The notes beneath the pieces are model-generated. The model searched no databases, was not told the DNA's origin, and was given only the letters and a program-made list of their open reading frames with translations. Source: Candidatus Daviesbacteria bacterium RIFCSPLOWO2_01_FULL_39_23 (lineage in GTDB: Bacteria > Patescibacteriota > Microgenomatia > Daviesbacterales > UBA10151). From it: DNA of 64,000 bases. The stretch lies in contig MFDN01000005.1 in NCBI GenBank assembly GCA_001776935.1, positions 68,893 to 132,892 of the forward strand, written 5' to 3'. The position numbers and the translations under genes are program-made. Position 1 is the stretch's first letter, and every line of letters begins with the position of its first letter. Shown here piece by piece: positions 40,149 through 64,000 of the stretch.

Positions 40149-40198
40149 GTTGATTTTAGTTTAACTTTAAATTCCTAAACTGTAAAGACCGATTGCTG

Positions 40199-40283: not shown

Positions 40284-40288
40284 TTAGG

Positions 40289-47140: not shown

Positions 47141-48850
47141 TTATTTTTTCTCTATATTAAAAAATGCAAAGCCTTTTTGGGGAATTGCTAGATACCCTGG
47201 TGCTCTAATATTAAACGCCTCCTTAAATACTCCTGCACTTATTCGAATCTCTCCTATGTTGGTTTGAAAAATTATTTCGTTTGTGGAACCGTTACCCTGA
47301 ATTACAGTTACTGAAGAAACCGCAGACGGACCGTTGGACTTTTCGCGAAGCTCTGCATGAGAATAAGGATTAGTACCTGGGTAGCATGAGGTAGTCACCG
47401 GAGTCACTCGATCATCCCTGTATCGCGTTGCGTTAATAATATCCGCCATCTCTTCAGGAGATAACCAGGCATTAGATCTTCCACATTTATTACTATTAAT
47501 ACTGTATCTCTCAGTATACCAGGCCTTATAAAGCCATGGCGAGCCGCCTAATTTATCGTAAGCCTTATCTATAAAATTACTTCCACCAGAACCATCTGTA
47601 GTATCCCAGCCAATCGGTGAAGCAAACCCTCCGTGTGTTGAAGCGTAAAAAGTAACCACATCCTCAACCACCTGACCGCGGGTAGCATTGACCGCATTTT
47701 TCCATGCTTGAGGTGGATTATCAGATTTAGACTTATTAAATACTTGGGCCGCTTCTGTAGTCTTAATCGCCTCTCCTGATTGTTTATATCTCAACGCATA
47801 TGTTCTTGCTGCAACAGCCTGGGCTTTCAACGCTTCCGAATGCCAACTGGAAGGCATCTCAGCAATTCCATATAAGTATTTTTCTTCAAAATTCATCGAG
47901 CCAAAACCTGACACGTTGATATCCCCTCCTGTATCTTTACCCACAGGCTCTTTGCCATAATATGCTTTTAAAATTGCTTTGTAATCCTGACCTGACTCTG
48001 CCCTGCCTCTGGCCCCATATTGGCTCATGCCTTTCCGATGGGTATGCGCACCAAAGGAAAACACCCCAAAATATCCAGCAGGAGCGTTGGCTTTAAAGCC
48101 TTTAATTGAAGCATTTATATCATCTGCCTCTTCACTATCTCCAATAGTCGCAGTAAATTGGCCAGATCTTGCTGCCAAAATCTCCTGTTGTTTGGCGGAA
48201 AGCTCGGCAATTTTCCCTGTCAAATCTGCCTGGTAAGCCTTGGCTTTCTTAATTTCTCCGCCTAAAAAGTCTGCATTTTTATCAACTTCTGCCTGCAAAG
48301 AAGAAAGCTTTACTTTATCTTTTTCCAGTTTTTCTTTTTGGGTTAGAAGATCTATAACTTCCCCTGTAACAGAAGCAATAATCGAGCGGTCTTCGCGGGT
48401 AACTGTCTGCCTATAAGACAGCTCGCGGAACAAATCTCCTGAAGAAATGGATGACAAAAGCACAAGCAAAGGTTCTGCTAAATAAGAGCGGATATAGTAG
48501 GCTTTAACCCGTGTCTCAAGGAGTGCCTGTTGAAGCGCCAGCTTATCCTCCCGGATATCCAAATCTTTTTGCTTTTGCTTAATACTTAAAGATAAATTAT
48601 TTAAATTTGCCTGAATTTGGGCAAGCTGCATTTTTAAGGATTCCAATTGCCCTTCCAAAGGCTTTGTGGCTTTAACAGATGATTCCCTTGCTTTGTTTAA
48701 CTCATCAATTTGTTTTTGCAGGTCTTCTATTTCGTCAGCCTGAGCAGTTGGCAGTAAGTAGCTGGCAGTAAGTATTAAGGGTAAAACAAAAAACAGCATT
48801 CCCATAATACATAATACAAATCCCTTAATACTGCTTTTACGGGCAAACAT
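47141..48850 (-). CDS. SpoIID/LytB-domain protein with N-terminal coiled coil
   Basis: 569 aa. Signal/TM segment, long coiled coil, then the SpoIID signature SEALKAQAVAARTYAL. Confidence 0.65.
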   Translation of the reverse strand: MFARKSSIKGFVLCIMGMLFFVLPLILTASYLLPTAQADEIEDLQKQIDELNKARESSVKATKPLEGQLESLKMQLAQIQANLNNLSLSIKQKQKDLDIREDKLALQQALLETRVKAYYIRSYLAEPLLVLLSSISSGDLFRELSYRQTVTREDRSIIASVTGEVIDLLTQKEKLEKDKVKLSSLQAEVDKNADFLGGEIKKAKAYQADLTGKIAELSAKQQEILAARSGQFTATIGDSEEADDINASIKGFKANAPAGYFGVFSFGAHTHRKGMSQYGARGRAESGQDYKAILKAYYGKEPVGKDTGGDINVSGFGSMNFEEKYLYGIAEMPSSWHSEALKAQAVAARTYALRYKQSGEAIKTTEAAQVFNKSKSDNPPQAWKNAVNATRGQVVEDVVTFYASTHGGFASPIGWDTTDGSGGSNFIDKAYDKLGGSPWLYKAWYTERYSINSNKCGRSNAWLSPEEMADIINATRYRDDRVTPVTTSCYPGTNPYSHAELREKSNGPSAVSSVTVIQGNGSTNEIIFQTNIGEIRISAGVFKEAFNIRAPGYLAIPQKGFAFFNIEKK

Positions 48851-49240: not shown

Positions 49241-49565
49241 TGAGGATTTCCCCAAACCTCTGATAATCAAAATTAGGAACTTTGGCTTTTCAATCAAAAC
49301 TATCCAGCAGAAAGATCTTCAAGGATCTTCTGATGAAAGAGTAGCAAGTATCGCTCTCAAAGAAAAACGAATACTTTTAACCTTTGATAAGGATTTCTTA
49401 AAAAACCAGTCTAAAAAATTGCAAGCGGTCATTTTCAGCTTCCCTAAAACTCCAACCGCCGAGATACTTTCTTTAATAGAAATGTTCCTGCGAAATTTGC
49501 CGGAAGAATTATTGAAAAGGAAAATATTAAGATTCAGCAAACGTGGATTTGAAATAATTACTTAG
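49224..49565 (+). CDS. DUF5615/Mut7-C PIN-like protein (toxin-like partner of DUF433)
   Basis: 113 aa. MKFLADEDFP...ILLTFDKDF. Confidence 0.55.
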   Translation: MKFLADEDFPKPLIIKIRNFGFSIKTIQQKDLQGSSDERVASIALKEKRILLTFDKDFLKNQSKKLQAVIFSFPKTPTAEILSLIEMFLRNLPEELLKRKILRFSKRGFEIIT

Positions 49566-49568
49566 TAT

Positions 49569-49662
49569 GACCCTAAATCCCAAAATGTGCTAAGCCACAA
49601 CCAGTTTCATAGTTGTGATAAACTAACTTTAATGTCCAAAAAGATGATATAATACAATCAAT
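49569..49662 (+). promoter_or_regulatory. Repeated cassette-leader element, copy 2
   Basis: CCCTAAATCCCAAAATGTGCTAAGCC...TTAATGTCCAAAAAGATGATATAATAC. Confidence 0.5.
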
Positions 49663-49923
49663 ATGAAAAATATTATTACCAGGAATCCAAAAATTTTAGG
49701 CGGGAAACCCATTATTGCCGGCACCCGGATGTCTGTAGAAGTTATTCTGGAATCTTTAGCCGGAGGCATGAGCATAGAAGAAATGCTAAAAGAATATCCT
49801 TTCTTAAAGAAAGAACATATCCAAGCAGCCATAGATTATGCCGCTAAAATTGTTGGTAAAGAAGAAAGCTACTTGTTTGAAAAAGCTTCTGCTATTACCC
49901 ATGAGATTCATCGCCGACGTTAA
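49663..49923 (+). CDS. DUF433-family protein (second copy)
   Basis: 86 aa. NPKILGGKPIIAGTRMSVEVIL. Confidence 0.6.
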   Translation: MKNIITRNPKILGGKPIIAGTRMSVEVILESLAGGMSIEEMLKEYPFLKKEHIQAAIDYAAKIVGKEESYLFEKASAITHEIHRRR

Positions 49924-50260
49924 TATTCCTCAATTACTTATCACGCGGTTAATCGATTTAGATCATAATGTCCTTGACATTAAAAAACATAATCTGGAAA
50001 TCAGCGATATAGAAATTATTAAGATTGCAAAGAAGGAATCAAGAGTAATACTTACCCGGGATAAAGACTATATAATTTTGGTTCAATTCCCTAGGTATCA
50101 AGTTCCTATTATCGCCATCAGGTTGATCAATCAAACTGATACCCAATATATTACCAGCAAAGTTTTGGAATTTATTAAAAATAATAAAGAATCAATTATC
50201 TTAAATTCTTTAACTGTTATCAGAGAGAATGCTGCTACTTCCTATCAGTACCCACTGTGA
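49901..50260 (+). CDS. DUF5615/Mut7-C PIN-like protein (second copy)
   Basis: Start at MRFIADVN overlapping the DUF433 stop; ...ILTRDKDY. Confidence 0.5.
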   Translation: MRFIADVNIPQLLITRLIDLDHNVLDIKKHNLEISDIEIIKIAKKESRVILTRDKDYIILVQFPRYQVPIIAIRLINQTDTQYITSKVLEFIKNNKESIILNSLTVIRENAATSYQYPL

Positions 50261-50344
50261 TTTTCCTGTCTCAAAAATATATACGATCGTATTAAGTTTT
50301 GTCTATTTTACTAATCATTAAAATTCTAACCACCATTCCCTAGT

Positions 50345-50440
50345 CACTAGGCCCTAAACCCTATCTTGTACTAAGCCACAATCAATTCACGTAGTTGTGG
50401 TAAACTAAAATCAATGTCCAAAATACCTTCTATAGCAATA
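50345..50440 (+). promoter_or_regulatory. Repeated cassette-leader element, copy 3, followed by a truncated 5' remnant of a pilin-like gene
   Basis: CCCTAAACCCTATCTTGTACTAAGCCACAA...TCAATGTCCAAAA. After it, MSKIPSIAIFFV* mirrors the signal peptide of the 50693 gene. Confidence 0.45.
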
Positions 50441-50516: not shown

Positions 50517-50690
50517 GACCACCTCTTTAGGAGGAAGGGCTGATTATTTGGTGACAGGAGACGAAGATTTGCTTGCGCTTAGTGCCAAACCTGATTTGGG
50601 AGAACTGAAGATTGTTACGACCAAACAGTTCCTGGCTAAAATTTTACCACAAACTCTGGACCCCAAACTTCTCTTGTGCTAAGCTAAAAT
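50517..50690 (+). pseudogene. 3' remnant of a PIN-domain gene
   Basis: Encodes ...GRADYLVTGDEDLLALSAKPDLGELKIVTTKQFLAKIL*, resembling a PIN-domain C-terminus, with no N-terminal part; overlaps leader element copy 4 (50650-50700). Confidence 0.35.
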
Positions 50691-50692
50691 TA

Positions 50693-52204
50693 ATGTCCAG
50701 GATATTCACTATACCAATAATTTTCCTTTCTGTTGTTATATTTTTCTTCGGTTTTAACCGCATCACCTACGCTATAGATCCAAGAGATCCAAACCTTGAA
50801 ATCATACCCCCATCTCCTGCGGTTACAGACTCACAAGTAACCATCACTGTACAAACCAAAGACGGCAGTAGTTCTTTTAATGAAAAAAAATATTCTTTCG
50901 CTGCATGGAAAGGCGATCTCAGTCTGGTAAACTTTGGTATTTATAAGAGACTCGTAGATTATAATTGTGTTTATATAAACTTTAATGAGAACATCTCTAA
51001 TAGAAAAAACGCAGATCTTAGAATTACTCTGGATAAATCAAAAGCTATTGCTATCTGGCCAGTAGATAACAAGTGCGTAAAAATGGGTGACGTCTGGCAT
51101 TTTCGCTTATGGGCATCTCCAAGCATTGATCCTATGGGTAGCGACTGGGATACCATGATTGAAAATAATTTTCTGGTAGAAGACTACAAGTTTCAGTTTG
51201 TTCAACCAAACGGCAAGATTGCTGCAATCAAAGCAGGAGGAAATACCCAAGATTCTAATGTTTACTCTGGGGAAAATGCAACAGTTGTGCTTTCTAATGC
51301 AGCCGATGGTGCCTCCTACACGTTTTGGTGGCATGGCGCATATGGTATTGCTGAAATATATCATAGCAAAGGATCAGGAAACTTTGAAATCGAAATTAAG
51401 GACCGCTTGAATGGCAAGCAAAGATTGTGTATGGAATTTGGTGATGCTGGATTGCAACCGCCAAAAGGTCATCCTTGCAATCAGCCTGGAAAATTTGTTG
51501 ATTTTGAGTTCCATGGCATTAAAAGACCTCCGACAGCTACTTTGCCTCCTGGAATTCAAACTAAATGTTTTTTATATGCTGCCCACCTGCCAACACTTAA
51601 GGAAAGGGATTCCCTAGCAGTCGGTTACATGAATTTACCTCCACGTCAGGAATTCAAGGCAACACTTGTTAATAAAGATGGCACCGAAGTAAATTCCGCA
51701 AAAGCCGTATCCGACCAAAAAGGAAGTCTACTCATCTCTGTAATAACAGAAATTGGTATTGGTGAAGATTATAAGGTCACCATCACTGATTCTAGCAATA
51801 AAGAGGTTTGCTCAGAAATCTTTTCAGCAACAACAGACGGCACAAGTCCTAAATTCGCTAAATGCGACGATTCTTCTTGCACCCGCTTACCGGATAATAT
51901 GGAATGTAAAGACGGTAGCGGAATCGGTATTAATACTGCCATTGGCTGTATTCATACCAATCCGGCAGCGTTGGTAAAAGATCTTTTAAGGTTTATCCTT
52001 GGAATAGGAGGAGGAATTGCATTTTTAATGATGCTTTTGGGGGTTTTCCAGATGCTGACTTCTGCCGGAAATCCCGAGACTTTAAATGCCGGAAAGGAAA
52101 GATTAACCAGTGCGGTGATTGGACTGCTGTTTGTTATCTTCTCCATCTTGCTGTTACAAATTATAGGGTGGGGTATCTTGAAAATACCGGGATTAGGATC
52201 TTAA
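50693..52204 (+). CDS. Large secreted protein with a C-terminal TrbC/VirB2-like pilin module
   Basis: Probable start at MSRIFTIP inside ORF 50612-52204; signal peptide ...NRITYA/IDP. C-terminus FILGIGGGIAFLMMLLGVFQMLTSAGNPETLNAGKERLTSAVIGLLFVIF matches the pilin-like paralog motif. Confidence 0.5.
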   Translation: MSRIFTIPIIFLSVVIFFFGFNRITYAIDPRDPNLEIIPPSPAVTDSQVTITVQTKDGSSSFNEKKYSFAAWKGDLSLVNFGIYKRLVDYNCVYINFNENISNRKNADLRITLDKSKAIAIWPVDNKCVKMGDVWHFRLWASPSIDPMGSDWDTMIENNFLVEDYKFQFVQPNGKIAAIKAGGNTQDSNVYSGENATVVLSNAADGASYTFWWHGAYGIAEIYHSKGSGNFEIEIKDRLNGKQRLCMEFGDAGLQPPKGHPCNQPGKFVDFEFHGIKRPPTATLPPGIQTKCFLYAAHLPTLKERDSLAVGYMNLPPRQEFKATLVNKDGTEVNSAKAVSDQKGSLLISVITEIGIGEDYKVTITDSSNKEVCSEIFSATTDGTSPKFAKCDDSSCTRLPDNMECKDGSGIGINTAIGCIHTNPAALVKDLLRFILGIGGGIAFLMMLLGVFQMLTSAGNPETLNAGKERLTSAVIGLLFVIFSILLLQIIGWGILKIPGLGS

Positions 52205-52224
52205 TGTAAAGATCAAAAATCAAA

Positions 52225-52596
52225 ATGCAAAATGACAGTGTAAAATTCAAAATTGAGTTCAAGAAAAGACTGTACAGTTTTGCATTAAAACTCATAACAT
52301 TTATCGATCAGCTACCAAATGATAATGTTTCTAAAAGAATCGGAGACCAACTTTTAAGAAGCGGCACGAGTATCATAGGAAATTATATCGAAGCCACAGC
52401 CTCCAGCTCAAAAAAAGACTTCACTAATTTTTTTAATCATTCGTTAAAATCAGCTAACGAAAGCAAACTATGGGTATCCCTTTTAAAAGACACAGGCAGG
52501 GCTGTAAAAGAAAAAACCGAATGGTTTATTGTTGAACTGGATGAAATATCAAAAATTTTTGCCTCTTCAATATTAACTCTAAAAGGTAGAAAATAA
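52225..52596 (+). CDS. Four-helix-bundle protein (23S rRNA intervening-sequence protein family)
   Basis: 123 aa. IGDQLLRSGTSIIGNYIEA...KKDFTNFFNHSLKSANESKLW matches the family signature. Confidence 0.55.
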   Translation: MQNDSVKFKIEFKKRLYSFALKLITFIDQLPNDNVSKRIGDQLLRSGTSIIGNYIEATASSSKKDFTNFFNHSLKSANESKLWVSLLKDTGRAVKEKTEWFIVELDEISKIFASSILTLKGRK

Positions 52597-52662
52597 TGTT
52601 ATTAACATTTTAGATTTTGATATGTCATTTTGATATTTACATTTTAATTTTTAAATTTACTT

Positions 52663-52986
52663 ATGAAGATTGCTCAAGTACTACCTGACCTTCAAAAAAT
52701 ATATGATGCCAAGCCGGCAAAAGATATTAACAGCTTAGGCGATCTTATTTCCGTCTTTCTAAACATTGTTTTTTATGCAGCCGGATTTTTAGCTTTCTAC
52801 TATCTGGTTTGGGGAGCGCTCTCCTATATTATGGCTCAGGGAAATAAAGAAAGTCTGGCCAAAGCCAGAGCCAGGATTACCTGGGCAATTATCGGACTGA
52901 TGGTAGTATTTTTGGCATTTTTCATAGCTAGATTCGCAGGGGAAATATTCCCGCCCAGTCCGGACAGAGGAGGGTTGCCATTTTGA
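52663..52986 (+). CDS. TrbC/VirB2-like pilin-family protein (paralog 1)
   Basis: 107 aa. Hydrophobic helix, then AQGNKESLAKARARITWAIIGL, then a second hydrophobic helix. Confidence 0.55.
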   Translation: MKIAQVLPDLQKIYDAKPAKDINSLGDLISVFLNIVFYAAGFLAFYYLVWGALSYIMAQGNKESLAKARARITWAIIGLMVVFLAFFIARFAGEIFPPSPDRGGLPF

Positions 52987-53426
52987 GAGAAATATCAAAT
53001 ATCAAATATCAAATATCAAAATGTTTAAAACATTTTAGATTTTACATTGTCATTTTGATATTTACATTTTACATTTTAATTTTACCTCCCACCCCTGTTT
53101 ATGCTGCCAACCCCTGCACTCCCGACCCAAAAGGAGGATTTAATATAGGCAGCTGCTTTGGCTTTGGGGATATCACTTCTTTGGGTCAGGCTACCAGCAG
53201 ACTGGTTATACCTGTATTTTCCATAGCCGCGGCAGCAGTAGTAATATATTTTTTACTGGGGGCTTTTAAATATTTGAGTTCAGGGGGAAATAAAGAAGCC
53301 GTAGCAGGAGCCCGAGGAATGATTACTCATGCCATTATTGGATTTTTAATATTAATGTTTGCCTTTTTGATATTACAATTCTTAATATCAAGCTTATTCG
53401 GGATTACCAATTTTCAACTATTTTAA
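52983..53426 (+). CDS. TrbC/VirB2-like pilin-family protein (paralog 2)
   Basis: 147 aa. ...LSSGGNKEAVAGARGMITHAIIGFL... The 5' end contains the (ATATCAA)x4 tandem repeat. Confidence 0.5.
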   Translation: MREISNIKYQISKCLKHFRFYIVILIFTFYILILPPTPVYAANPCTPDPKGGFNIGSCFGFGDITSLGQATSRLVIPVFSIAAAAVVIYFLLGAFKYLSSGGNKEAVAGARGMITHAIIGFLILMFAFLILQFLISSLFGITNFQLF

Positions 53427-53435
53427 AGTTAGAAA

Positions 53436-54074
53436 TTAAAAATGCGGACCGGGAATATGAGTCCCTATATTTTTTACCCAGGGAATTTTATACCTGAAAG
53501 CATAAATACTTGCTATTAAACCAATCAAACCACTACCAATAATAATCTGTCCTAAAGGCAACTCGCTATTATCCCTATTTTCTAACTTCTCAGAAATAAA
53601 AGTGGCTGTTGGAGAAGGAACCGGTGTATAAGTCGGGAATAATCCAGCCCGTTGCCTAATTCTAATCTGTTCTTCTGTAAACGTAGGAGTTACAGTAGAA
53701 GTTACTGTAGGCGTTCCTGTTTCTGTAGGGGTTGGAGTTAGTGTCGGTATACTGGTTTTTGTAGGTGTTCCCTTTATAGCACTTATTTCATCGGCTATAG
53801 CAGTGTGAGTTGCCTCACGAAAGGCTAAATCCCTTTCTTTGGATAAAGCAGTTGTGGTTTTATCTGCAATAGCGATTTTAATATCCTGAACATCCGGTGT
53901 TGGTGTTACAGTAGCGGTCGGAGTCCTTGTTGCGGTAACAGTTGAAGAAGGCTTAGGTCCGTCAGCATAAACGTTTTGTGCGGTGTTATCTATCGCAACA
54001 TTTATCGCTGCGCCCAATACTAACGCGCCTATGGTTCGTCTTCCTATTTCTACAATTCCGGGTTGTTTTTCCAT
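53436..54074 (-). CDS. Hypothetical Thr/Pro-rich membrane-anchored protein
   Basis: 212 aa. TPT repeats (TPTATVTPTP, TPTPTETGTPTVTSTVTPT) and a C-terminal TM segment. Confidence 0.35.
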   Translation of the reverse strand: MEKQPGIVEIGRRTIGALVLGAAINVAIDNTAQNVYADGPKPSSTVTATRTPTATVTPTPDVQDIKIAIADKTTTALSKERDLAFREATHTAIADEISAIKGTPTKTSIPTLTPTPTETGTPTVTSTVTPTFTEEQIRIRQRAGLFPTYTPVPSPTATFISEKLENRDNSELPLGQIIIGSGLIGLIASIYAFRYKIPWVKNIGTHIPGPHF

Positions 54075-54184
54075 AATTAAAGCAATATTTTAGCACAATA
54101 AGACCATTTTGTCAAAATTATAGGATATAATAACTGCCATCTTTCTAATTTCTCTTTTTAAGTGATAATATTAGTCTAGAAGTC

Positions 54185-54823
54185 ATGAACTTATTTACTT
54201 TTGCTAGAAAAATAACCCTGTTGATACTATTTTTTTATCTCATTTCTTTTATTATGCCTGCCTCCTCTTTAGCGATCGAACCAGGACTTCCTTGTGACCC
54301 CCAGGCTGCCAAAAATGAGTGTGAAAAAGATCAAGATGGTTTCAGTTATTCCTGCCAGCGGGTTAAAACCCAATTCCTTTGTGAACGCGATATATTTGGC
54401 ACTGTTGATCCTCCTCCGGTTTTAAATCCTTTTTTAAAAAAAGATTCCACAGGTTCTGGGGCTATTAGTGATTTTTTATCCAGATTAATAGTTTTAATTT
54501 ATTCCATAGCAGGTATAGTTTTACTTTTTATGATCCTTTGGGGAGCTTTGGAATGGATGTTATCCGGAGGAGATAAGGAAAAAATTGCCTCTGCAAGAGG
54601 CAGGATTTTTAATGCCATTATCGGCATCATCCTGTTTGCAATAGCTTTTGCTATAATAAGAGTCATTGGGCAATTTACCGGGTTTACGTTTTTTAAAGGA
54701 CAAAATGATGTCGTTATTGTAAGCACTGGCTATGACTCCACCAGTCAAAGTTCTTATGTTTTATGTTCAAACGGACGAAAGCTCTTCACCCCTAGAAAAG
54801 ACAACGCTGTCTGCACTGAATAG
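54185..54823 (+). CDS. TrbC/VirB2-like pilin-family protein (paralog 3) with Cys-containing N-terminal domain
   Basis: 212 aa. ...LSGGDKEKIASARGRIFNAIIGIILF... Confidence 0.5.
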   Translation: MNLFTFARKITLLILFFYLISFIMPASSLAIEPGLPCDPQAAKNECEKDQDGFSYSCQRVKTQFLCERDIFGTVDPPPVLNPFLKKDSTGSGAISDFLSRLIVLIYSIAGIVLLFMILWGALEWMLSGGDKEKIASARGRIFNAIIGIILFAIAFAIIRVIGQFTGFTFFKGQNDVVIVSTGYDSTSQSSYVLCSNGRKLFTPRKDNAVCTE

Positions 54824-54866
54824 CACTTGACAAGTGCTTTGAAATATAGATATAGTTAAGCTACTA

Positions 54867-55238
54867 ATGAAAAAATTAGCATTTTTAGGATCTTCAGTTT
54901 TATCTTTTTTATCACCGGCTTTAACATTAGCCGCTGATCCAATACAAATCCAAAAACCTGCGGGAGTTGGTTTTTCAACTATTGGAAATTTTATCAGCAA
55001 TATATTAACGGTTGTTTTCAGTATAGCTATTTTAGCAGTACTGGTAATGCTGATCTGGGGGGCTTTTGAATGGATCACTTCAGGCGGAGATAAAGAAGCT
55101 GTTGGTAAAGCAAGAGGGAAAATTATTAATGCCTTAATAGGTTTGGCTGTTTTGGCAGTAGCTTTTGCTTTAGCCAGATTAGGCGGACAATTCGTAGGAG
55201 TAGATATTACTAACCTGCCTATCCCCGATCCCCTGTAA
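54867..55238 (+). CDS. TrbC/VirB2-like pilin-family protein (paralog 4)
   Basis: 123 aa. Signal peptide ...ALTLA/ADP; ...ITSGGDKEAVGKARGKIINALIGLAVLAVAFA. Confidence 0.6.
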   Translation: MKKLAFLGSSVLSFLSPALTLAADPIQIQKPAGVGFSTIGNFISNILTVVFSIAILAVLVMLIWGAFEWITSGGDKEAVGKARGKIINALIGLAVLAVAFALARLGGQFVGVDITNLPIPDPL

Positions 55239-55288
55239 TCTTTAAAACCTTAGTTGTGATTCAAAAAAATTAATGATAAGTTAGAATA

Positions 55289-55756
55289 ATGACAGGTTAT
55301 ATGTTACAGGTTACAGGAATAAAAATACTAGCTTTATTTTTTGCTATCCTTGTCTTTCTTTACCCTTTACCCTTTACCCTTTACCCTGCCTTTGCTGCTA
55401 CTGCCCCTTGCGATGATGCAAATTCCATCAGAGCAGGTTACGGGCCTTGCCCTGCAGGACTTTCAGAAATCGAACAAGTAGTGGCTAACGTAATTTCCGT
55501 AATAGTAGGATTGGGGTTTATTACCATGCTGGTAATGCTTATTTTTGCAGGGATTAAATACTTAACCTCAGGAGGAGAACCTAAAGCCTTGCAAGCTGCT
55601 CATATGACTGTTACCTGGGCCCTTTTGGGAATCTTCTTTCTGGCTTTGGCCTGGCTGGCATTACAACTTATTGCAAACTTAACAGGAATAGACGTTACTG
55701 TATTTAATATAAAAGCCTTGTGCGGCGGAACAGGATTGCCGTTTTGCCAACCTTAA
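55289..55756 (+). CDS. TrbC/VirB2-like pilin-family protein (paralog 5)
   Basis: 155 aa. ...LTSGGEPKALQAAHMTVTWALLGIFFLALAW. Contains the (CTTTACC)x4 tandem repeat encoding YPLPFTLYP. Confidence 0.5.
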   Translation: MTGYMLQVTGIKILALFFAILVFLYPLPFTLYPAFAATAPCDDANSIRAGYGPCPAGLSEIEQVVANVISVIVGLGFITMLVMLIFAGIKYLTSGGEPKALQAAHMTVTWALLGIFFLALAWLALQLIANLTGIDVTVFNIKALCGGTGLPFCQP

Positions 55757-56275: not shown

Positions 56276-58195
56276 ATGACTGCCCGATTTGAATTTACAA
56301 TTTACAATTTGTTTTTCAAACTGCCTCCGGCAGAGCACTTTACAATTAAATTCTTAATAATCTCTCTTCTGGCTTTTGTTTGTACATTATACATTGTACA
56401 TTTTACATTCCTCACCCCTGCTTCTGCCCAGACCCCTTCTGCTGTTACTGTAGCCACCTCTTCATCCACCTCGGGGGAGCCAAAGCTCACCCCCGAGGTG
56501 TCTCAAACAATACCCTCCTATATCCCCCCTACTTCCCCTCTTTATACTGATCTTTTGGTAAATAATTTATTCCATTCCTTCAGTTGTCTGGCAATCGGGC
56601 AATCCATGATCGGACAACCCTGCTTGACTTATAAAGTCACCAAAAACGCCCAAGGCGCACTTCAGGGCATACCGGTTCTATCCCAGGTGAACCTGTCCGG
56701 CGGTGCATTAGGCTCTGTAACTTCGGTCATCGGAGCTTTGTACCTAAATCCTCCGGTAAGAACTGCTGATTATTTAGCTTCTGTGGGAACCGGATTAGGG
56801 ATTGTTAAAGAAGCCAATGCACAGGTTGTCGGTTCAGGCGCGGCAGTATTAAGTCCTATTTTAAGCCTTTGGCAGGTTTCCAGAAATGTTTCATACGTTA
56901 TCATGATCATTATTTTTGTGGTGATCGGGCTAATGGTGATGTTCCGGAATAAACTTAACCCCCAAACAGTTATTACAGCCCAGGCAGCTTTACCAGGACT
57001 GGTGATTGGCTTAATTTTAATCACTTTTTCCTACTTTTTAGCAGGACTTATTTCCGATATGGCTTTTGTGGGAACCAATGTAGTAGGTTATTATTTTGTG
57101 GCTGCCCAGGGCAGATTAGACGATCCACAGTTTAAGGACCAGCTCAATTTAACACAGAAAATCTCTCAAAGTAGTATCCTAGACATTTTAGCCCCACTAA
57201 CAGGAATAGTAACACGGGAAAGAGCAGACGATGCAGCCAACCGCTTTGTCAGCCAACTGGGAGATGCCATCTGGCCAATAAGAATAGCAATATTCTTCCT
57301 AAGCGCACAATTTTTGATGCCCATTGCCGGCGGTATTCCCCCTCCTTTTGGTTTGATTGCAGCTCCAATAGTCAGCCTGTTTGGCGGAGCTGTTGCTAAC
57401 ATCGGTCTACCCTTCTTTTTGGGTTACTTTTTAAGCTTTGCTGCTGCTTTGGCACTCACCTATCAAATGATCAAACTGCTGATTAAACTGATTATGGCAT
57501 ATCTGACAATAATTTTTTTGACAATCAGCGCCCCGTTTCAGTTTTTGTTTGCTTCTTTACCGGGCAGACAGGGAATAGCCACCGGCTGGATTATGAACAT
57601 GTTGGGAAATATTTTAATATTTCCGGCAGTGGTGGCAGTCATTTATTTTGTAGCATTCCTGCTTGGTCCTGAACTAATGGCGCCGCATTGCCCCCAAGCT
57701 ACCTGCCCATTTAAGGTTTCCAATTTAAATCAGGAGAGTAACATTGCTCTTGTATCTCCAGTATATGCCCAAGGTGCTAATGAAATAATCGGCAACTCAA
57801 CTTTCCCTTTATTAGGAGGAATGGATTTGAATTTTGTCAAGATTTTACTGGCTTTTGGGGCTTTAATGGCATTACCCACAATCCCTGATATAATAACCAG
57901 AGCCATTGGCAAAGGAGGACAAGCAGGATCTATGATCGGACAAGAAATTATGGGTGGCTTTAGAGAAGGCCAAGGCTACGCCCAAAGAACCTACATGGGG
58001 GGACTAAACTATGCTCAGGGAGCTAAGACAAGTATCTTTGGAGAGAAACAGTTCTCTAGAAACCCCACGACAGGAAGATGGGCGGCTACTTATGGAAAAC
58101 CTGGTGCGGTTCATTGGGGTCAGATTGAAAGGGGTAAAACAGATGCAGATATGACAGAAGGCACGAAAGCAGGCACTCAGGCTTTAGGAAGTTAA
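56276..58195 (+). CDS. Polytopic membrane protein, VirB6/TrbL-like T4SS component
   Basis: 639 aa with many TM helices and a Ser/Thr-rich N-terminal region; position next to the pilin genes; no catalytic motif. Confidence 0.45.
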   Translation: MTARFEFTIYNLFFKLPPAEHFTIKFLIISLLAFVCTLYIVHFTFLTPASAQTPSAVTVATSSSTSGEPKLTPEVSQTIPSYIPPTSPLYTDLLVNNLFHSFSCLAIGQSMIGQPCLTYKVTKNAQGALQGIPVLSQVNLSGGALGSVTSVIGALYLNPPVRTADYLASVGTGLGIVKEANAQVVGSGAAVLSPILSLWQVSRNVSYVIMIIIFVVIGLMVMFRNKLNPQTVITAQAALPGLVIGLILITFSYFLAGLISDMAFVGTNVVGYYFVAAQGRLDDPQFKDQLNLTQKISQSSILDILAPLTGIVTRERADDAANRFVSQLGDAIWPIRIAIFFLSAQFLMPIAGGIPPPFGLIAAPIVSLFGGAVANIGLPFFLGYFLSFAAALALTYQMIKLLIKLIMAYLTIIFLTISAPFQFLFASLPGRQGIATGWIMNMLGNILIFPAVVAVIYFVAFLLGPELMAPHCPQATCPFKVSNLNQESNIALVSPVYAQGANEIIGNSTFPLLGGMDLNFVKILLAFGALMALPTIPDIITRAIGKGGQAGSMIGQEIMGGFREGQGYAQRTYMGGLNYAQGAKTSIFGEKQFSRNPTTGRWAATYGKPGAVHWGQIERGKTDADMTEGTKAGTQALGS

Positions 58196-61100
58196 TTCCT
58201 AAAATCACCTTTTTTGATACCTGGAAACATCTCGGTGTTGCCTGCAACAGCTTCTTTACGGACTAGCGGCGGGATACTCTCTCCCAAATTCCTTATCTTT
58301 TCTTGATCATATTTGCCTGTTTTTCTATTTAACGTATACCAGTAGAAACCTTCTTCCCGCATAAACTCTAGAAGACCTCTTCTCCTTACATTTTCCAAAG
58401 CTTTTTTGACTTCCTTATGCAACCCTGGATCATTCCAGGTTTCTTCATTCAGCAGTGACCGCCCTTTTTGTTTTGCCGCGTTATCTGGCCTAGGTGCCTT
58501 TATCGTATTCCCTTGCGTATCTGTTTTAGGCCGACCTTTATCATCCAGTACCGGATCCATAATAATGTTTCCATCCTGATCCCGTTCATGCAATACTTTG
58601 GATAAAATTAGAGCTCCTTCCTGAGCTAATCTGTTTCTTTCATAATCTCTGAGGATCAGATAATCGCCATCCATGAGCATTGTTTCAACCATTGCAAGAG
58701 ATATCTCGCTGAAAGCTTCTCTTGAATATCCCAGCCGGTCAACAATGCCCCTTCCTCCTTTATCCAAACTTTCTCTGAGCAGCCTTCTAAAGGCATACCA
58801 CCTTATAGTATTCTCATAGACATAGTTTCTGGGCGCATTTCCAATCCTGTTTTGTTCAACTTCTTTTTCTGCCTTTAGCCACATTGTGAAATAGTCAAAT
58901 ACTTTAGCTGTTGTATTATAGAGCTCATTTGATTTTACTTTTCCCTTAGATGCTAGTTTATTGTGATCTACCCAAGTTAATTGTCTGGCTACTTCCAAAT
59001 CAGGATCATTAGACAAGCGTTTTCCTGATCGTACTTCATCCATAAGAATAATATATGTCTTTGTATACCCCAGGCCGAGACTATGCAGGATATTTTCTGC
59101 TACTATACTACGCATCACGTCAGCTACCTGCCAGGCACCATGAATGGGTTCCATTAAAAATCCGGGGGTGAATTGACCTTCTCCTAAGCTCCCGCCTGTC
59201 AAAGCTGTCCTAGCTTTATAAGCTGCTGCTTGTGCTTTGGCGTTTTGAGTCATATCTTTTCTAGGATCAAGCATTTTCTGCTTATGAGCCTCAACCTCAT
59301 TCCTCCTTTTCATGTAATTATTTATATCCCCAATACTTCGGCATCCTAACCATATTCCTAAAGGAAAATAGTTTGTCCCAGCAAAAGGAATAAATTCTGG
59401 AAATTTTACTCCCCCGCTGGTAGAAATATTATATTCTGCCTCAGTAACCGTAAGATTTTCTGGATCATCTCCTGAATCAACTACCCTTAATCTGTCTTCC
59501 ATTTCCTGTGGTTCACCCCAGTCATCAGACATGGTAAACAAAGAAACAGCCGGTTTAGGCACCCCCTGCACCTTCACAACCTTGCCATTAATATCACGCT
59601 CATAAATTGGATATTTCCCAAGCATAAATTCATTATTTGCGCGTCTCGTTTCTGAACGCAAACCTCTTCTTTCGCGTTCCAAAAATTCATAAATTTCTTT
59701 TTTATAATCCGCAAAAGGTAAACCCGGGGCTACTTCTACTCCAAACTCTGCCAGGATTCCCCCGAAAAATTTAATCCCGGAGTTATCAAGAGCGCTGGTG
59801 TGCGGCGTGGTTGGAAATCTTCCGTTTACCATACCCTTAGCTTTAAAAGCATGGGTAACTAAAAACTGACAGTCGACTAATTTATTCCTTAAATTTTTCG
59901 TAGTTTCATCCAAAGCCCGGGTTGCAGTATCAATTGCAGTCTGATCTTTAGCGAGCTCTGCTTTATACAAGGCTTTTTGTGTCTGACGCTTGGCATCTTT
60001 AAAGGGTTTTATTTCTGCCTCTTCATCAGCAATAGCCTTTGCCAACCGCGCCTCAATCACATCCCATACACGAAGACTTTTTCTTTCCGGGTCTACAATA
60101 ATAGCTTCACCATTAGCATCTCTTTCAACTTCAACCTCGCGAGTAACAGGATTTATCCTCCCTTTAATCAGACCTAACAATACACTGGTTTCATCATCAG
60201 CCAGTCTGCCTGTATATTCCCCTGCTTGTGGATGACCTTTTGGCATAATCATTCTAATTCTCATCCCGCCCAGTAAACTACTTTCCATCAAAAACCCCTG
60301 AAAAGACCGGGCCAGTTCAAAACCAAATCTTGCTTCCTCTATACGCCCAGCTTGAAGATCTTTAATTCTTGCCTGAACCTCAACATCGCCATCCGCCGCC
60401 TCCGGAAAATAGGCTGATTCATACATTGCCACCCGTTCTTCGTCTGTTAAGGAACGATCAATTACTTTAGCTGCCCGATCTATCTTCAGCCTGACTTTGT
60501 CCCAACCGCTTGGATACCATCTTCTTTGATGAGTTAAAATCCGTTTATCGTTATAATCTTTTACCCATCTCCAGGCAATGCGATCGCACTCTGTTAGGTC
60601 TCCTTTTTTCTTAGCTTCATCAAATTGAGCCATAGCATTTTTGCTCGGACGTATAAAATAACTCCTTTTTTTATTACTTAACAACTCCATCTGCTCCCGG
60701 ATCCTAGTCCTGACAGCTTCTTGTCTTGTGCTTTCTGTTTTTTGCTCAACTTCTTTTTCAATCCATGCTTTGCTTTCATCAGAATCAGGATTTTTACCCT
60801 CATTACGCAACCGGATACGTAACTGCTCCCGGAAAACATCTTTGCGCACTTCAGCTAAATCAAATAATTCCTCGTCTGATAAAGGTCTGCGCCTACGCTT
60901 TTCCTCTTGTTCAATTTCAGCCCGTGTAACAAAATCAAACCCATCCTCGCGGTCTAATTGCTGTTTTATCCTGCGGAAAACTTTGACACGTAAATCATGT
61001 CTTGTTAAAGCCTCATCATCCTTTGTGTCTGCAATTCTTTTCCTGATTTCATCGTTGGGATCCAAGAGTAATATTTCCAAAGGATCGTTTGCGGAATATT

Positions 61101-63219
61101 GCAATTTATAAAATTCCCTTAGTTCAAAAAAACCTTTATAAGCTAACCTTGCATCTTCCTCGTCGTCTTTACTTCTGATCAACCTTAAATCTTCCTCGCC
61201 TTGTTTTGGCTCTTTACTGAACAGATCTCTGTGCAACCCAAAGAGAGATTCCGTAAAAAAATCCAGAGTGGCAGCTTCATCTATCAACTCCTCCTGTATT
61301 TCTGTCCTGTAATCAAGAATATCGCCCTCTTCGGCTTTATCTGTGCGCCAATTATGTCCAGTCCAGTAAGTTCCATCCTTATGCCTTCTTATTCTCTGCA
61401 TCAGATAAGCTGCACACCTGTTTTCCAAATACATGGCATTAAAATTTGCAATAAACCTGGCAGCAAATCTTTCTTTTGCCTGTGGCCCATATTCAGTATT
61501 ACCAGCTTTCATAATCATATCGTTGGCAAAAACATCAGGTAAAGCTTCGCTTATAGCTCTTGCTCTCAGGTAGTCCGGGTTTGTTTCCAGGATTTTTCCA
61601 AACAGTGCAACTAATCCTGGTTCATCATTACACCGGATGCGGCTGTTTTTAAGTAACATCGGACCAGTCTTTCTAGCTTCTTCAAACTCCTGATTTGCAG
61701 TTCCCGCATCACGCTGACCTATATCTGCTATACGGTCCTTCATCCAGTCCATTACAGTCAGAATCATGTCTCTTGCGCTTTCAGGCCATCCGAATATAGT
61801 AATAGTTGCTCCTCCCCAATAAGATTCGGCTTGAAAATACCTGTTTTCGGATGTACTCATCCTATCCTTAGCCCGTTGACGTTTAATTATGGTGAAGATT
61901 CTTTCTACGGCAGGATGTTTAATTATTCTGTTGATGCCTTCCTCCTCAAAACCGATTAACGCATGAATCCCATCCCATAAATATTGATATATACCTCCAA
62001 TCTCAGCTTTTAACGGCGCAAGTTCAGCAGCATCTTCCAATATTTGTTCCTGCATCCGCGCCCGGCTTCTTTCCTGCTCGATCACAGCTTCTCTTCCCCT
62101 GCCCTGTAACTCACGAACTCTGGTTTCCTTAATCTTTTTATAAGAATCCAGAACCCTTCTAAAAAACTCCTTTAAGGGTTTTACCGGATGATTTTCTGCT
62201 TCAAGCGCCAATTGCTCAATCCTTTGCCTGCTTTGTTCTTGAAGCAGTTTAAGTTGCTGTTGCTCAATTGGGTCTTTCGGTATCGGCCTTGACATTAATT
62301 GTTCATAAACAATTCGAGCTTGAGTAAAAACGCTTGGCCGTTCCGGATTATTTAACTCTATAGCCCTATTCCGGAGTATTTCAACTTCATCCAAAAGACC
62401 ATTTGCTTTATCTGCGGCAGCATCGGGTATCTTTCCTTCATACAGTTGTGCTTCAACAAATACTGCGATTCTGTTAAAAAAGTCTTCATCTGCAAGACCC
62501 CGATCAACGGCATGTTTTACTCTTGTCGCAACCTGTTTTAGCATTGGATTAATACCATAGTCATCCGGATTAATACTTCTTTCTCCCGGAGAGAGACGAC
62601 CCACTAATCCTGCTTCAAAAAGTTTACGTCTTTCTTCTTTAGTAAAACTTGATAATTCTTCTGCTTTTCCCCGGATCTGTTCCCGCTTTAAATTGTATAC
62701 ACCCGCCCGGTATTCTTCATTAAGACCTGCTTCCTTTGATGCTTTTTCATGAGCAGCTATAAGCTCCTTCTGCTGTTGTTCAGACAGTTCTTTGCCTAAC
62801 ACTTCTGCTGCTTTTTGCTTGCGCTCTTCGTCCCCAAGCGCGGCATTTTCTAAAACAGTTCCCTCTACTATTATCTTTCCGTTTATTACCTGTCCAGGTG
62901 ATAATGGCATATTTGGCAAATTAACCTTTGTTGATTCCGGCTGACCCGTTACTTTTTCATTATTGGCCTTTTGAGCGAGCGCAGTACGTATACGCTCCGC
63001 TTCTTGTTCTGCATCTTTAAGAAAGTCTTCGTGAGTTTCATATTTATACCGTTGCTGTTGAATAACTTCCAGAGGATGACGCTGGTTTAGCGTCGCAAAT
63101 AGCTGACGGGACATGCCTGGAATAGGAGATTTAACCGCTGCATTTTCGGCTTGGGGTCCTGGTTGTGTAACTTCTGGTCCTGCATTTGTTCCTTCTGCCA
63201 TATTTCTTTCTTGCGCCAT
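58192..63219 (-). CDS. Very large (1675 aa) charged, coiled-coil-rich hypothetical protein
   Basis: Single uninterrupted ORF; E/K/R-rich; no TM segment, Walker motif or recognisable catalytic signature; sits in the T4SS-like region. Confidence 0.5.
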   Translation of the reverse strand: MAQERNMAEGTNAGPEVTQPGPQAENAAVKSPIPGMSRQLFATLNQRHPLEVIQQQRYKYETHEDFLKDAEQEAERIRTALAQKANNEKVTGQPESTKVNLPNMPLSPGQVINGKIIVEGTVLENAALGDEERKQKAAEVLGKELSEQQQKELIAAHEKASKEAGLNEEYRAGVYNLKREQIRGKAEELSSFTKEERRKLFEAGLVGRLSPGERSINPDDYGINPMLKQVATRVKHAVDRGLADEDFFNRIAVFVEAQLYEGKIPDAAADKANGLLDEVEILRNRAIELNNPERPSVFTQARIVYEQLMSRPIPKDPIEQQQLKLLQEQSRQRIEQLALEAENHPVKPLKEFFRRVLDSYKKIKETRVRELQGRGREAVIEQERSRARMQEQILEDAAELAPLKAEIGGIYQYLWDGIHALIGFEEEGINRIIKHPAVERIFTIIKRQRAKDRMSTSENRYFQAESYWGGATITIFGWPESARDMILTVMDWMKDRIADIGQRDAGTANQEFEEARKTGPMLLKNSRIRCNDEPGLVALFGKILETNPDYLRARAISEALPDVFANDMIMKAGNTEYGPQAKERFAARFIANFNAMYLENRCAAYLMQRIRRHKDGTYWTGHNWRTDKAEEGDILDYRTEIQEELIDEAATLDFFTESLFGLHRDLFSKEPKQGEEDLRLIRSKDDEEDARLAYKGFFELREFYKLQYSANDPLEILLLDPNDEIRKRIADTKDDEALTRHDLRVKVFRRIKQQLDREDGFDFVTRAEIEQEEKRRRRPLSDEELFDLAEVRKDVFREQLRIRLRNEGKNPDSDESKAWIEKEVEQKTESTRQEAVRTRIREQMELLSNKKRSYFIRPSKNAMAQFDEAKKKGDLTECDRIAWRWVKDYNDKRILTHQRRWYPSGWDKVRLKIDRAAKVIDRSLTDEERVAMYESAYFPEAADGDVEVQARIKDLQAGRIEEARFGFELARSFQGFLMESSLLGGMRIRMIMPKGHPQAGEYTGRLADDETSVLLGLIKGRINPVTREVEVERDANGEAIIVDPERKSLRVWDVIEARLAKAIADEEAEIKPFKDAKRQTQKALYKAELAKDQTAIDTATRALDETTKNLRNKLVDCQFLVTHAFKAKGMVNGRFPTTPHTSALDNSGIKFFGGILAEFGVEVAPGLPFADYKKEIYEFLERERRGLRSETRRANNEFMLGKYPIYERDINGKVVKVQGVPKPAVSLFTMSDDWGEPQEMEDRLRVVDSGDDPENLTVTEAEYNISTSGGVKFPEFIPFAGTNYFPLGIWLGCRSIGDINNYMKRRNEVEAHKQKMLDPRKDMTQNAKAQAAAYKARTALTGGSLGEGQFTPGFLMEPIHGAWQVADVMRSIVAENILHSLGLGYTKTYIILMDEVRSGKRLSNDPDLEVARQLTWVDHNKLASKGKVKSNELYNTTAKVFDYFTMWLKAEKEVEQNRIGNAPRNYVYENTIRWYAFRRLLRESLDKGGRGIVDRLGYSREAFSEISLAMVETMLMDGDYLILRDYERNRLAQEGALILSKVLHERDQDGNIIMDPVLDDKGRPKTDTQGNTIKAPRPDNAAKQKGRSLLNEETWNDPGLHKEVKKALENVRRRGLLEFMREEGFYWYTLNRKTGKYDQEKIRNLGESIPPLVRKEAVAGNTEMFPGIKKGDFRN

Positions 63220-63396
63220 AAATTCCTTTCTTTAGAGTCTAGTCGCTAGAGTCAAGAGTCTAGAATTTATGATCTTAACTCCAGCATAGAACTTCCAAAA
63301 TTAAAAGTCAAAACTCAAAGTTCAAAGCTCAAAACTACAGCTTAAAGCTTAAAACTTACAAGTAGTTTATACTGAGTAAAATCGAAGCGCTTGATT

Positions 63397-63714
63397 TTAT
63401 TTTGACAAAATCCTGACGGGTTTAAAGTTAAATATTGATCTACCTAATTCCAAAACACTCCCTCTGCATTGTCCCCCAAAACCATGTTTCCCATTACACT
63501 GAAAACATCTCCGCCGACTCCCTCTTGCACGACGAATCCTTTTTGACCCTCTATTAGCTTTTAATTCGCCGGACAAAAAATCCGGAATTAACCTGCTTAC
63601 AGACGAAGTCTCGTTAAACCGAGCCATGATTGTTTCTGGAAAAGAAGGATTAACCCTCTGCATAACATCTGGGTAAACTAGACCGTTAATTCTTAAAGGT
63701 ATTTCTACTGGCAT
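63397..63714 (-). CDS. Hypothetical basic protein
   Basis: 105-aa ORF with an Arg-rich stretch and CFQCNGKHGFGGQC. Confidence 0.25.
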   Translation of the reverse strand: MPVEIPLRINGLVYPDVMQRVNPSFPETIMARFNETSSVSRLIPDFLSGELKANRGSKRIRRARGSRRRCFQCNGKHGFGGQCRGSVLELGRSIFNFKPVRILSK

Positions 63715-63788: not shown

Positions 63789-63959
63789 CTATGCTGCTTT
63801 TGGTAATTCATAATCTTCTTTCTTTTCTTCTTTCTTTGCTCCTGATGGAGCACAGGAAACTTTATCTGTCCCGCAGCTCTGACAATTATTAACATATCCT
63901 TCCCAAGGCCTCTTGTTAATTGCTCCACAAACAGGACAAGGAAAGTATAGCGAACCCAT
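63789..63959 (-). CDS. Small zinc-ribbon protein (56 aa) missed by the ORF track
   Basis: Minus-strand frame encodes MGSLYFPCPVCGAINKRPWEGYVNNCQSCGTDKVSCAPSGAKKEEKKEDYELPKAA; CPVC...CQSC. Confidence 0.3.
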   Translation of the reverse strand: MGSLYFPCPVCGAINKRPWEGYVNNCQSCGTDKVSCAPSGAKKEEKKEDYELPKAA

Positions 63960-64000
63960 GGAATCTGATTCACCAATAACAGATGCCCCGGCTATACCTG

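Follow-up and report, generated by a model that had tools for sequence, protein, structure and literature searches.

The window analysed here, a stretch of 64,000 nucleotides (nt) of contig MFDN01000005.1 from Candidatus Daviesbacteria bacterium RIFCSPLOWO2_01_FULL_39_23, harbors towards its end a gene for a protein of 1675 amino acids, in the following termed the giant protein, which lies beside genes of a type IV secretion system (T4SS). Daviesbacteria are tiny uncultured bacteria thought to depend on a host cell. As proposed in an earlier note on this stretch, the gene is a single open reading frame (ORF) of 5 kb. It is initiated by ATG and situated on the minus strand (58192–63219). A Shine-Dalgarno-like AAAGGA is located 6 nt upstream of the start codon, and the hypothetical protein UT04_C0005G0008 of Candidatus Daviesbacteria bacterium GW2011_GWF2_38_7 is identical to the giant protein (100%). 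The ORF is a real gene and looks expressed. Glu (10.4%), Arg (9.0%), Lys (7.2%) and Asp (6.4%) add up to 33% charged residues with a net charge of about −11, which renders the protein slightly acidic overall. The former description as extremely rich in Glu, Lys and Arg was too strong, as a charge content of 45–50% is reached only at residues ~600–900. The maximum of a Kyte-Doolittle scan over 19 residues is 1.24, and hence neither a transmembrane (TM) segment, as already noted, nor a signal peptide is predicted. Walker A, HxH, HExxH, CxxC and LPXTG motifs as well as sequence repeats are absent from the giant protein, and comparison with Pfam, NCBIfam, PHROGs, PADLOC and PDB sequences gave sub-threshold noise only, in agreement with the view that no enzymatic motif can be recognised.

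At its 3′ end the giant gene converges with an ORF of 639 codons. Both ORFs overlap by 4 nt within a TTAA that holds the two TAA stop codons, which share 2 nt; the stops are not, as previously described, 4 nt apart. The encoded neighbour displays a TM segment at residues 19–49, a loop of ~150 residues, some seven additional hydrophobic stretches and a tail rich in Gly. The polytopic arrangement of VirB6/TrbL proteins, with at least five TM helices, is thus found in this neighbour and is missing from the giant protein. The designation of the neighbour as VirB6-like is based on topology and position; no profile match was obtained for it. With this gene and the six genes matching PF18895 (T4SS_pilin) at 50612–55756, the giant gene is located next to a pilin/VirB6-like cluster.

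The same surroundings are found in related genomes. The nine family loci that were retrieved by protein identity all have the same arrangement of genes around the giant gene. Beside dnaN, one strand carries genes for a protein of ~150 residues, a protein of 660–806 residues, VirB4 (PF19044/DUF87/AAA_10), a TraC-like protein (PF26593) and PrgI (PF12666). On the other strand follow a Zn-ribbon protein, sometimes a protein of ~70 residues, and then the giant gene, which is convergent with a gene for a polytopic protein of ~560–640 residues and the subsequent six pilin genes. Past the pilins, the map continues with SpoIID, a protein of ~185 residues, DUF5657, a protein of ~607 residues and SmpB. 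The window shows this order in mirror image, with SmpB at 43926; by synteny, the PrgI/TraC-like/VirB4 operon is situated just past the end of the window. The giant gene occupies the slot between the PrgI(VirB3)–TraC-like(TrsD)–VirB4 operon and the VirB6-like/VirB2-pilin operon.

A survey anchored on VirB4 extended this picture to 80 species-level GTDB loci, nearly all from Daviesbacteria, with VirB4 identities of 61–100%. The hidden Markov model (HMM) of the giant family matched in only 14 of them. A large ORF of 570–1765 amino acids is nonetheless present in the same slot and orientation in about 50 of the 80 loci (VirB4 62–100% identical), adjoining a polytopic ORF of ~520–640 amino acids the two ORFs overlapping by up to 37 nt or being up to 108 nt apart. 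These slot ORFs are devoid of TM segments, have net charges of −2 to −58 and contain 23–38% charged residues. The giant protein displays all features that mark a slot protein, namely the convergent junction with the VirB6-like gene, the N-terminal twin-Met signature described below, the lack of a TM segment and the net acidic charge. One slot candidate, in locus L091, was identified as ClpB by its domains and discarded. Insertions of unrelated genes occur elsewhere in the loci, and nowhere do they separate the slot gene from the VirB6-like gene. The search for homologues next to pilin arrays of other genomes, recommended in the earlier note, was positive for the nine family loci, with a large slot ORF at the same position in about 50 species-level loci, and a link of the giant protein to the T4SS/pilin cluster that extends beyond the window is strongly supported.

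According to BLAST, the slot proteins fall into the family of the giant protein (cluster c1), the clusters c2 and c4 with 1077–1570 amino acids, the clusters c3, c5 and c6 with 570–880 amino acids, and singletons. Only profile-profile comparison connects clusters c1, c2 and c4 with each other. Using hhalign, probabilities of 95.9% (E 6e-9, 723 columns) for c1 and c4, 99.9% for c2 and c4, and 98.1% (E 1e-13) for c1 and the combined c2 and c4 were obtained, which define one superfamily of giant proteins present in 27 loci. Clusters c5 and c6 were aligned with a probability of 97.7%. Homology between the giant proteins and the slot proteins of 570–880 amino acids was not demonstrated (hhalign probability 17%).

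A word-indexed search of 5.8 billion proteins revealed only ten relatives of 1367–1763 amino acids, and the set was identical for the single sequence and for a profile; none of these first ten homologues contains a Pfam domain. An exhaustive HMMER search with a profile of the C-terminal half against 1.84 billion representative proteins gave 59 cluster representatives, 57 of them below 1e-10 and nearly all 1000–1690 amino acids long, without a tail of weak matches. The giant protein itself (P0001) is part of the query alignment and does not count as an independent match of the profile. No domain was detected in a Pfam scan of the 57 further family members and eight other slot proteins, and no PADLOC or Pfam match was found among the slot-protein representatives. 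Likewise, a 58-member profile gave nothing significant against the PDB (best E 0.029, ribosomal protein L14), tblastn of the giant protein against plasmid and phage records yielded no match, and no similarity to defence-system models was observed. The giant protein is a member of a previously undescribed, lineage-restricted superfamily of acidic, soluble, mostly α-helical proteins of ~1000–1770 amino acids.

In every cluster, c3, c5 and c6 included, the slot proteins start with a twin-Met motif followed by a low-complexity stretch rich in Pro, Gly, Ser and Glu. Typical forms are MAxIERNMAEG, MSKEFMTDG and MERERIMPDG. A loose version of the pattern is found in 33 of 53 slot ORFs versus 7 of 785 other ORFs (Fisher p 2e-38), and a strict version does not occur outside the slot ORFs among all ORFs of at least 100 amino acids in the window and 90 loci. 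The motif is present even in slot clusters which have no other detectable similarity. The strong Shine-Dalgarno sequence belongs to the first ATG of the signature. The codons vary among slot proteins (MAE, MPD, MSE, MTE), which suggests a constraint on the protein. The C-terminal motifs differ between subfamilies: LGxxIPPLVR in that of the giant protein, FVGEWPARLL in another and a basic RxRKKVxRP in a third. Matches to BID or XVIPCD domains were not found in the giant protein.

A further C-terminal feature was observed in clusters c2, c3, c5 and c6, many members of which have an amphipathic segment with Trp at the very end (IWEMIKAFFKQAFSLK, TIWDFIFGKFVPT and GIWAGFKLVFNK; examples are encoded at 3828–5882 in L073 and 817–4560 in L036). 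A pattern for this segment, which was chosen post hoc, matched 10 of 46 slot proteins and 17 of 753 background proteins. The segment looks like a helix for peripheral membrane targeting or like a recognition signal at the C-terminus, and is missing from cluster c1 including the giant protein.

The giant protein changes much faster than the secretion machinery encoded next to it. Between genomes with 84–87% identical VirB4, identities amount to 65–71% for the TraC-like protein, 64–70% for PrgI, 56–58% for the VirB6-like protein and 22–28% for the giant protein. The subfamilies of the latter are incongruent with the VirB4 tree: in loci L001 and L007 the giant proteins are 50% identical at a VirB4 identity of 72%, in L001 and L003 only ~24% at 85%. 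This incongruence suggests that the subfamilies are old allelic lineages, which were exchanged or differentially retained. The closest pair is 72% identical in protein sequence, with synonymous sites being saturated. The 660–806-residue protein encoded directly 3′ of VirB4 is as divergent as the giant protein (20–28% identity where VirB4 is ~85% identical). It has no Pfam match, reaches up to 1579 amino acids in some loci and may represent a second variable component. Its gene is located at 583–3003 in L001, 2082–4256 in L003, 1793–4066 in L005, 1555–3771 in L008, 3898–5886 in L010, 11830–16566 in L058 and 11779–16041 in L089.

Within the giant protein, conservation is arranged in blocks between residues ~300 and 1530, which are separated by indel-prone segments (Table 1). 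Near-invariant residues are G409, R453, G616, F748, D756, W883, R910, R922, M932, G1129, P1136, K1173, R1184, S1266, G1292, D1322, G1353 and N1470. The helical module directly behind the N-terminal leader is found in a few members only (P0001, P0006 and P0008–10). The facultative N-module, with the consensus NAxLxDxERLxAAxxLLGxxLTxxQxxAILxAHxxG...AGVYNYT...EQRRxLxEAGLVG, is present in ~21 of 58 family members scattered over the branches and is 34–68% identical where the remaining protein is ~24% identical. A profile search with this module revealed a 170-amino-acid fragment only. As it is restricted to cluster c1 and found in no other protein of the loci, a role as general T4SS-targeting domain was rejected.

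The best-conserved block follows the pattern RxRVV..GG..., ISTSGGV, KRRNEVE, xxD, LTGGS..G..PGFLxEPxxGA. The succession R...ISTSGG...NEVE around residues 1243–1310 prompted a comparison with R-S-E ADP-ribosyltransferases. This identity was rejected because the STS and the second Glu are not family-wide: one branch has "GIS-RGT" or "GTS-ADT" instead of STS, and the second Glu of "ExE" is conserved in 67% of the members, with polar residues following. Pfam and PDB searches gave no match to an ADP-ribosyltransferase.

Structure prediction with AlphaFold2, which the earlier note had recommended, was run on two halves of the giant protein using 10-sequence alignments. The resulting models are of low confidence, with values for the predicted local distance difference test (pLDDT) of 54.5 and 58.7. 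They contain 58% helix in the form of ~50 separate helices, the longest comprising 35–40 residues, and Foldseek searches with both halves against the PDB gave nothing below E 0.5. Prediction thus yielded many short helices and no matching fold, and at this confidence level the assumption of a coiled-coil protein with long helices is not supported.

Table 1. Features of the giant gene, its product and the surrounding genes (window coordinates).
Feature	Position	Strand	Basis or remark
Giant ORF, 1675 amino acids, ATG start, uninterrupted	58192..63219	minus	member of slot-protein cluster c1
Promoter-like TTGACT-17-TATGCT and heptamer-phased repeat (TTTRA-NN)n	63283..63358	minus	upstream region of the giant gene
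Twin-Met signature MAQERNMAEG, residues 1–10	63190..63219	minus	common to slot proteins of all clusters
Pro/Gly/Gln/Glu-rich low-complexity stretch, residues 11–30	63130..63189	minus	predicted unstructured, pLDDT ~30
Helical N-terminal module, residues 31–89	62953..63129	minus	pLDDT ~90, sole high-confidence part of the model
Facultative N-module, residues 119–207	62599..62865	minus	~90 residues; found in cluster c1 only
Conserved core, residues ~300–1530	58630..62322	minus	conserved blocks with indel-prone segments in between
Most charged, indel-prone region, residues ~680–870	60610..61182	minus	shortened or absent in many members
Best-conserved block, residues 1243–1367	59119..59493	minus	model of very low confidence
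C-terminal 40 residues with LGxxIPPLVR	58195..58314	minus	motif subfamily-specific
Polytopic 639-amino-acid "VirB6-like" membrane protein	56276..58195	plus	closes the pilin operon; convergent with the giant gene
VirB2-type pilin array, six T4SS_pilin genes	50612..55756	plus	PF18895 matches
105-amino-acid ORF, Arg-rich stretch and CFQCNGKHGFGGQC motif	63397-63714	minus	between Zn-ribbon gene and giant gene
Zn-ribbon protein, C-terminal end, ESDxxGSLYFPCPxCGxxNxRPxxGxxxNCQxCG	63789..64000	minus	adjoins the giant gene on its upstream side in related loci
SpoIID-domain protein	47141..48850	minus	far boundary of the pilin array; position conserved

The giant gene and the pilin array have a sequence element in common. 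The heptamer-phased, A/T-rich repeat (TTTRA-NN)n is present 5′ of the giant gene (63296–63358) and within the pilin array (52990–53085) and nowhere else in the window (5 matches versus 0.05 expected). In other loci it is mainly found in the divergent PrgI/Zn-ribbon intergenic region. This distribution hints at a regulatory element which may be common to the giant gene and the pilins.

The pilin array is broken by a minus-strand ORF of 212 codons (53436–54074) and by a plus-strand IVP/Avd-like gene (52225–52596), the product of which is a 23S-rRNA-IVP/bAvd-like four-helix bundle (PF05635, E 3e-17). The latter gene is bracketed by inverted repeats of 51 nt (52203–52253 and 52607–52657). L001 and L009 carry it at the matching place, and it is absent from L003, L005, L006 and L011; owing to this patchy occurrence it looks like an insertion. 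Avd-like proteins go along with diversity-generating retroelements. The region between the SpoIID gene and the array (48887–50423) consists of two to three repeat modules of ~690–780 nt (families D2, D4 and D5). One ORF in it corresponds to DUF5615, and a repeated coding stretch presumably resembles DUF433, a domain that is found in L009 at the matching place. The modules look like tandem toxin-antitoxin-like pairs. Further away, two adjoining sequences of ~36 nt on the minus strand (40198–40323) resemble the 3′ halves of tRNAs (GGATTCGAACC motif) and are probably two tRNA genes.

On the other side of the giant gene, the Zn-ribbon proteins of related loci (7143–8081 in L001, 8130–9602 in L003, 8122–9624 in L005 and 7720–8667 in L008) comprise 300–500 amino acids. 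They are composed of a variable N-terminal part, a Gly/Ser-rich linker and a C-terminal Zn-ribbon with the consensus ESDxxGSLxFxCPxCxxxNxRPxGxxxNCQxCGxD, and have no Pfam assignment. The 105-amino-acid ORF located between the two genes in the window is unrelated to the conserved protein of ~70 amino acids (MxxEKISSEIKS...VKPGL) encoded at this place in L001, L003, L005 and L006. The region from the PrgI operon to the giant gene is a hot spot of insertions (L001 8099–9619, L006 1137–1839, L007 6972–9793, L008 8714–9333 and L009 463–1641), with genes for HicB, MazE/PIN, PhdYeFM/PIN, Gp49/helix-turn-helix proteins, AAA_14-DUF4143 ATPases, EamA and a flavokinase. L015, L017, L020 and many more third-party annotation records of metagenome-assembled genomes are titled "uncultured Gammaproteobacteria bacterium" despite a Daviesbacteria-type T4SS locus, and these titles are evidently placeholders or mislabels.

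A real gene in a fixed position, belonging to a hypervariable family with terminal signatures and no known domains, was thus directly observed. Tentatively, and with less than even confidence, we favor the reading that the giant protein is a variable cargo or host-interaction protein which is linked to the T4SS and exported by it. Recognition, export and host-directed action are inferred as follows. Synthesis of the giant protein would take place in the cytoplasm, with no Sec signal involved. Its N-terminal tag (MAxIERNMAEG and the disordered Pro/Gly-rich leader), its subfamily-specific C-terminal motif, or both might be recognised by conserved components of the secretion apparatus, and a channel of VirB6 and the VirB2 pilus, powered by VirB4, could export the protein to or into the host bacterium. 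There the fast-diversifying body might act on or bind lineage-specific host targets. This reading is favored because the rate and pattern of change resemble those of the pilins rather than of the machinery, because no member displays the signature of an enzyme or a machine, because terminal tags around a diversifying body are typical of secretion substrates, and because protein export has been predicted in the literature for relaxase-less systems. Moreover, the gene has a fixed place within a T4SS locus, as is the case for known classes of substrates, and shares the heptamer-phased repeat with the pilin array. The suggestion of a secreted T4SS substrate or effector remains plausible, as an inference, and is the leading one.

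Several observations weigh against it. The locus contains no gene for a VirD4 coupling protein, and to our knowledge recognised T4SS signals are C-terminal or internal, none being N-terminal like the twin-Met tag. The C-terminal 40 residues of the giant protein, with eight Lys and Arg and six Asp and Glu, are not clearly basic. Conservation that extends along ~1200 residues and includes invariant Arg, Asp, Gly and Pro positions would fit a structural subunit as well, and the presence of one copy per examined locus is unlike typical effector repertoires. In addition, the loci all belong to one family-level lineage, so that synteny may in part reflect common descent, and the AlphaFold2 models (pLDDT 54–59) are too poor to inform. 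As a wider notion, which we regard as possible though doubtful, slot proteins in general could be the protein substrates of the essential Patescibacterial T4SS or determine its host range. They would be recognised by a new N-terminal tag in place of the C-terminal signals of classical T4SSs, and would be engaged in an arms race with host bacteria, parallel to that of the VirB2 pilins.

If the giant protein were not exported, it could be a cytoplasmic accessory or scaffold subunit docked on the VirB6-like/VirB4 complex, for example a substrate receptor in place of the missing coupling protein, or an assembly or regulatory platform. A protein without Sec signal and TM segment is cytoplasmic by default, and the single copy at a fixed position adjoining the VirB6-like gene, the blocks of conserved residues and the terminal motifs as possible docking sites are compatible with such a subunit. 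A precedent for large helical modules at the base of a T4SS is provided by the armadillo (ARM)-like soluble domains of VirB6-like proteins in Southlakia epibionticum. The Trp-containing ends of c2, c3, c5 and c6 proteins (e.g. IWEMIKAFFKQAFSLK) resemble a peripheral membrane anchor, but are absent from cluster c1 of the giant protein. Furthermore, the giant protein retains 22–28% identity in genome pairs in which the machinery genes retain 56–87%, its subfamilies are incongruent with VirB4, and the slots of sister lineages hold proteins of 570–880 amino acids without demonstrable homology to it. Lacking a nucleoside triphosphatase motif, it is no true equivalent of a coupling protein. We consider such a scaffold the main rival, somewhat less probable than the cargo reading. 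That the giant protein is functionally unrelated to the T4SS and merely shares the inherited gene order from dnaN to smpB is improbable. The entire region is syntenic in a single lineage with VirB4 identities of at least 61%, and the giant gene is situated on the strand opposite to both T4SS operons, which precludes co-transcription. However, no locus has lost the junction with the VirB6-like gene despite many insertions nearby, the family was found nowhere else among the representative proteins searched, the rare heptamer-phased repeat is shared with the pilin array, and the protein is as variable as the pilins, unlike housekeeping genes.

A surface filament, an adhesin or a pilus-tip protein, one of the functions considered in the earlier note, would agree with the adjoining pilin array and with the size and variability often seen in adhesins. 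No positive evidence for this was obtained: signal peptide, TM anchor, LPXTG sortase motif, repeats and β-rich domains are missing, and the predicted 58% helix points to a globular-modular architecture. Since non-Sec export would be needed, this very improbable alternative collapses into the cargo hypothesis. The relaxase-like function suggested at the same time belongs to a group of DNA-processing enzymes, including novel-fold relaxases or primases and SMC-like (structural maintenance of chromosomes) proteins, which a large protein in a T4SS context without annotated relaxase might bring to mind. To this group we assign hardly any probability. An HUH/HxH motif is absent, none of the positions shared by at least 90% of the members is a Tyr or His, the protein is net acidic, and MOB, SMC or other Pfam matches were found neither in the 57 further members nor in the first ten homologues. 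A Walker A motif ([AG]x4GK[ST]) is absent from the giant protein and occurs as a chance match in 7 of 58 family members; together with the lack of SMC_N or any other Pfam match this argues against a long coiled-coil ATPase and against the fusion with an SMC or translation factor that had been named as a possible housekeeping identity. The two antiparallel coiled-coil arms of more than 100 residues and the hinge of SMC proteins are at odds with the longest helices of 35–40 residues in the low-confidence models, and plasmid and phage records hold nothing similar.

Returning to the favored reading of an exported cargo, a functional analogy is offered by CagA of Helicobacter pylori, a mostly helical effector of ~1200 amino acids without a Sec signal, which is encoded in the cag T4SS locus and differs from strain to strain. 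We know of no CagA homologues outside its lineage. The giant protein is likewise large, helical, lineage-restricted, variable, devoid of a Sec signal and encoded in a T4SS locus, but shows no similarity to CagA in sequence or fold. For CagA, in contrast, export is known to involve a C-terminal signal, the chaperone CagF and the VirD4-like CagBeta. A conserved delivery terminus combined with a variable body is also known from LXG toxins of type VII secretion systems, XVIPCD effectors of the Xanthomonas T4SS and BID-domain Beps. The giant protein resembles these in its short conserved terminal signature, its diversifying body and its position beside a secretion system. In contrast to them, its body is one divergent homologous scaffold without swapped toxin domains, and no immunity gene or toxin domain was found.

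The locus as such conforms to the Patescibacteria-type T4SS, which comprises MPF-FATA (mating-pair-formation type FATA)-related VirB4, TrsD, PrgI/VirB3, VirB6 and arrays of VirB2 pilins (Quinonero-Coronel et al. 2025, PMC12102498; Wang et al. 2023, PMC10633639). Shared features are the operon of PrgI, TraC-like/TrsD and VirB4 next to dnaN, the divergent array of six pilins, the chromosomal location and the lack of a relaxase. Patescibacterial clusters generally have no relaxase and are proposed to export proteins, the substrates being unknown (PMC12102498; PMC10633639). Genes for type IV coupling proteins are usually distant in Patescibacteria and the coupling protein is not essential in S. 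epibionticum (PMC12102498), while the T4SS itself is essential for epibiotic growth of this organism, the one species open to genetic work (PMC10633639). Its cluster (SEML1_0004–0019) contains VirB6-like proteins in "extended" forms of ~1000 amino acids (PMC10633639). By description only, such extended VirB6 proteins, i.e. RvhB6 of Rickettsiales and SEML1_0011/0013 with their ARM-like domains, offer a parallel in that they place large, helical, hydrophilic modules at VirB6, just as the giant gene is always paired with a VirB6-like gene. As the giant protein has no TM segment and is encoded by a gene of its own on the other strand, simple fission of an extended VirB6 does not account for it. 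Unlike the loci described here, the gene table of S. epibionticum includes no gene for a soluble protein convergent with virB6, and a description of a large soluble slot protein as T4SS component was found neither by text search of PMC12102498 nor in PMC10633639.

The family provides a concrete candidate for a T4SS cargo or host-specificity element restricted to one uncultured lineage, and the twin-Met tag is a short peptide that can be used in translocation assays. Should the giant protein be a cytoplasmic subunit instead, it would still constitute an undescribed lineage-specific part of a secretion machine seemingly central to the lifestyle of the candidate phyla radiation. A seeming lack of conserved partners in such loci can mean divergence past the reach of BLAST and HMM searches rather than true absence. 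In comparison with known systems, the type of locus has been described before, and the giant protein is regarded as a new element of the Patescibacterial T4SS, putatively an accessory part or a cargo.

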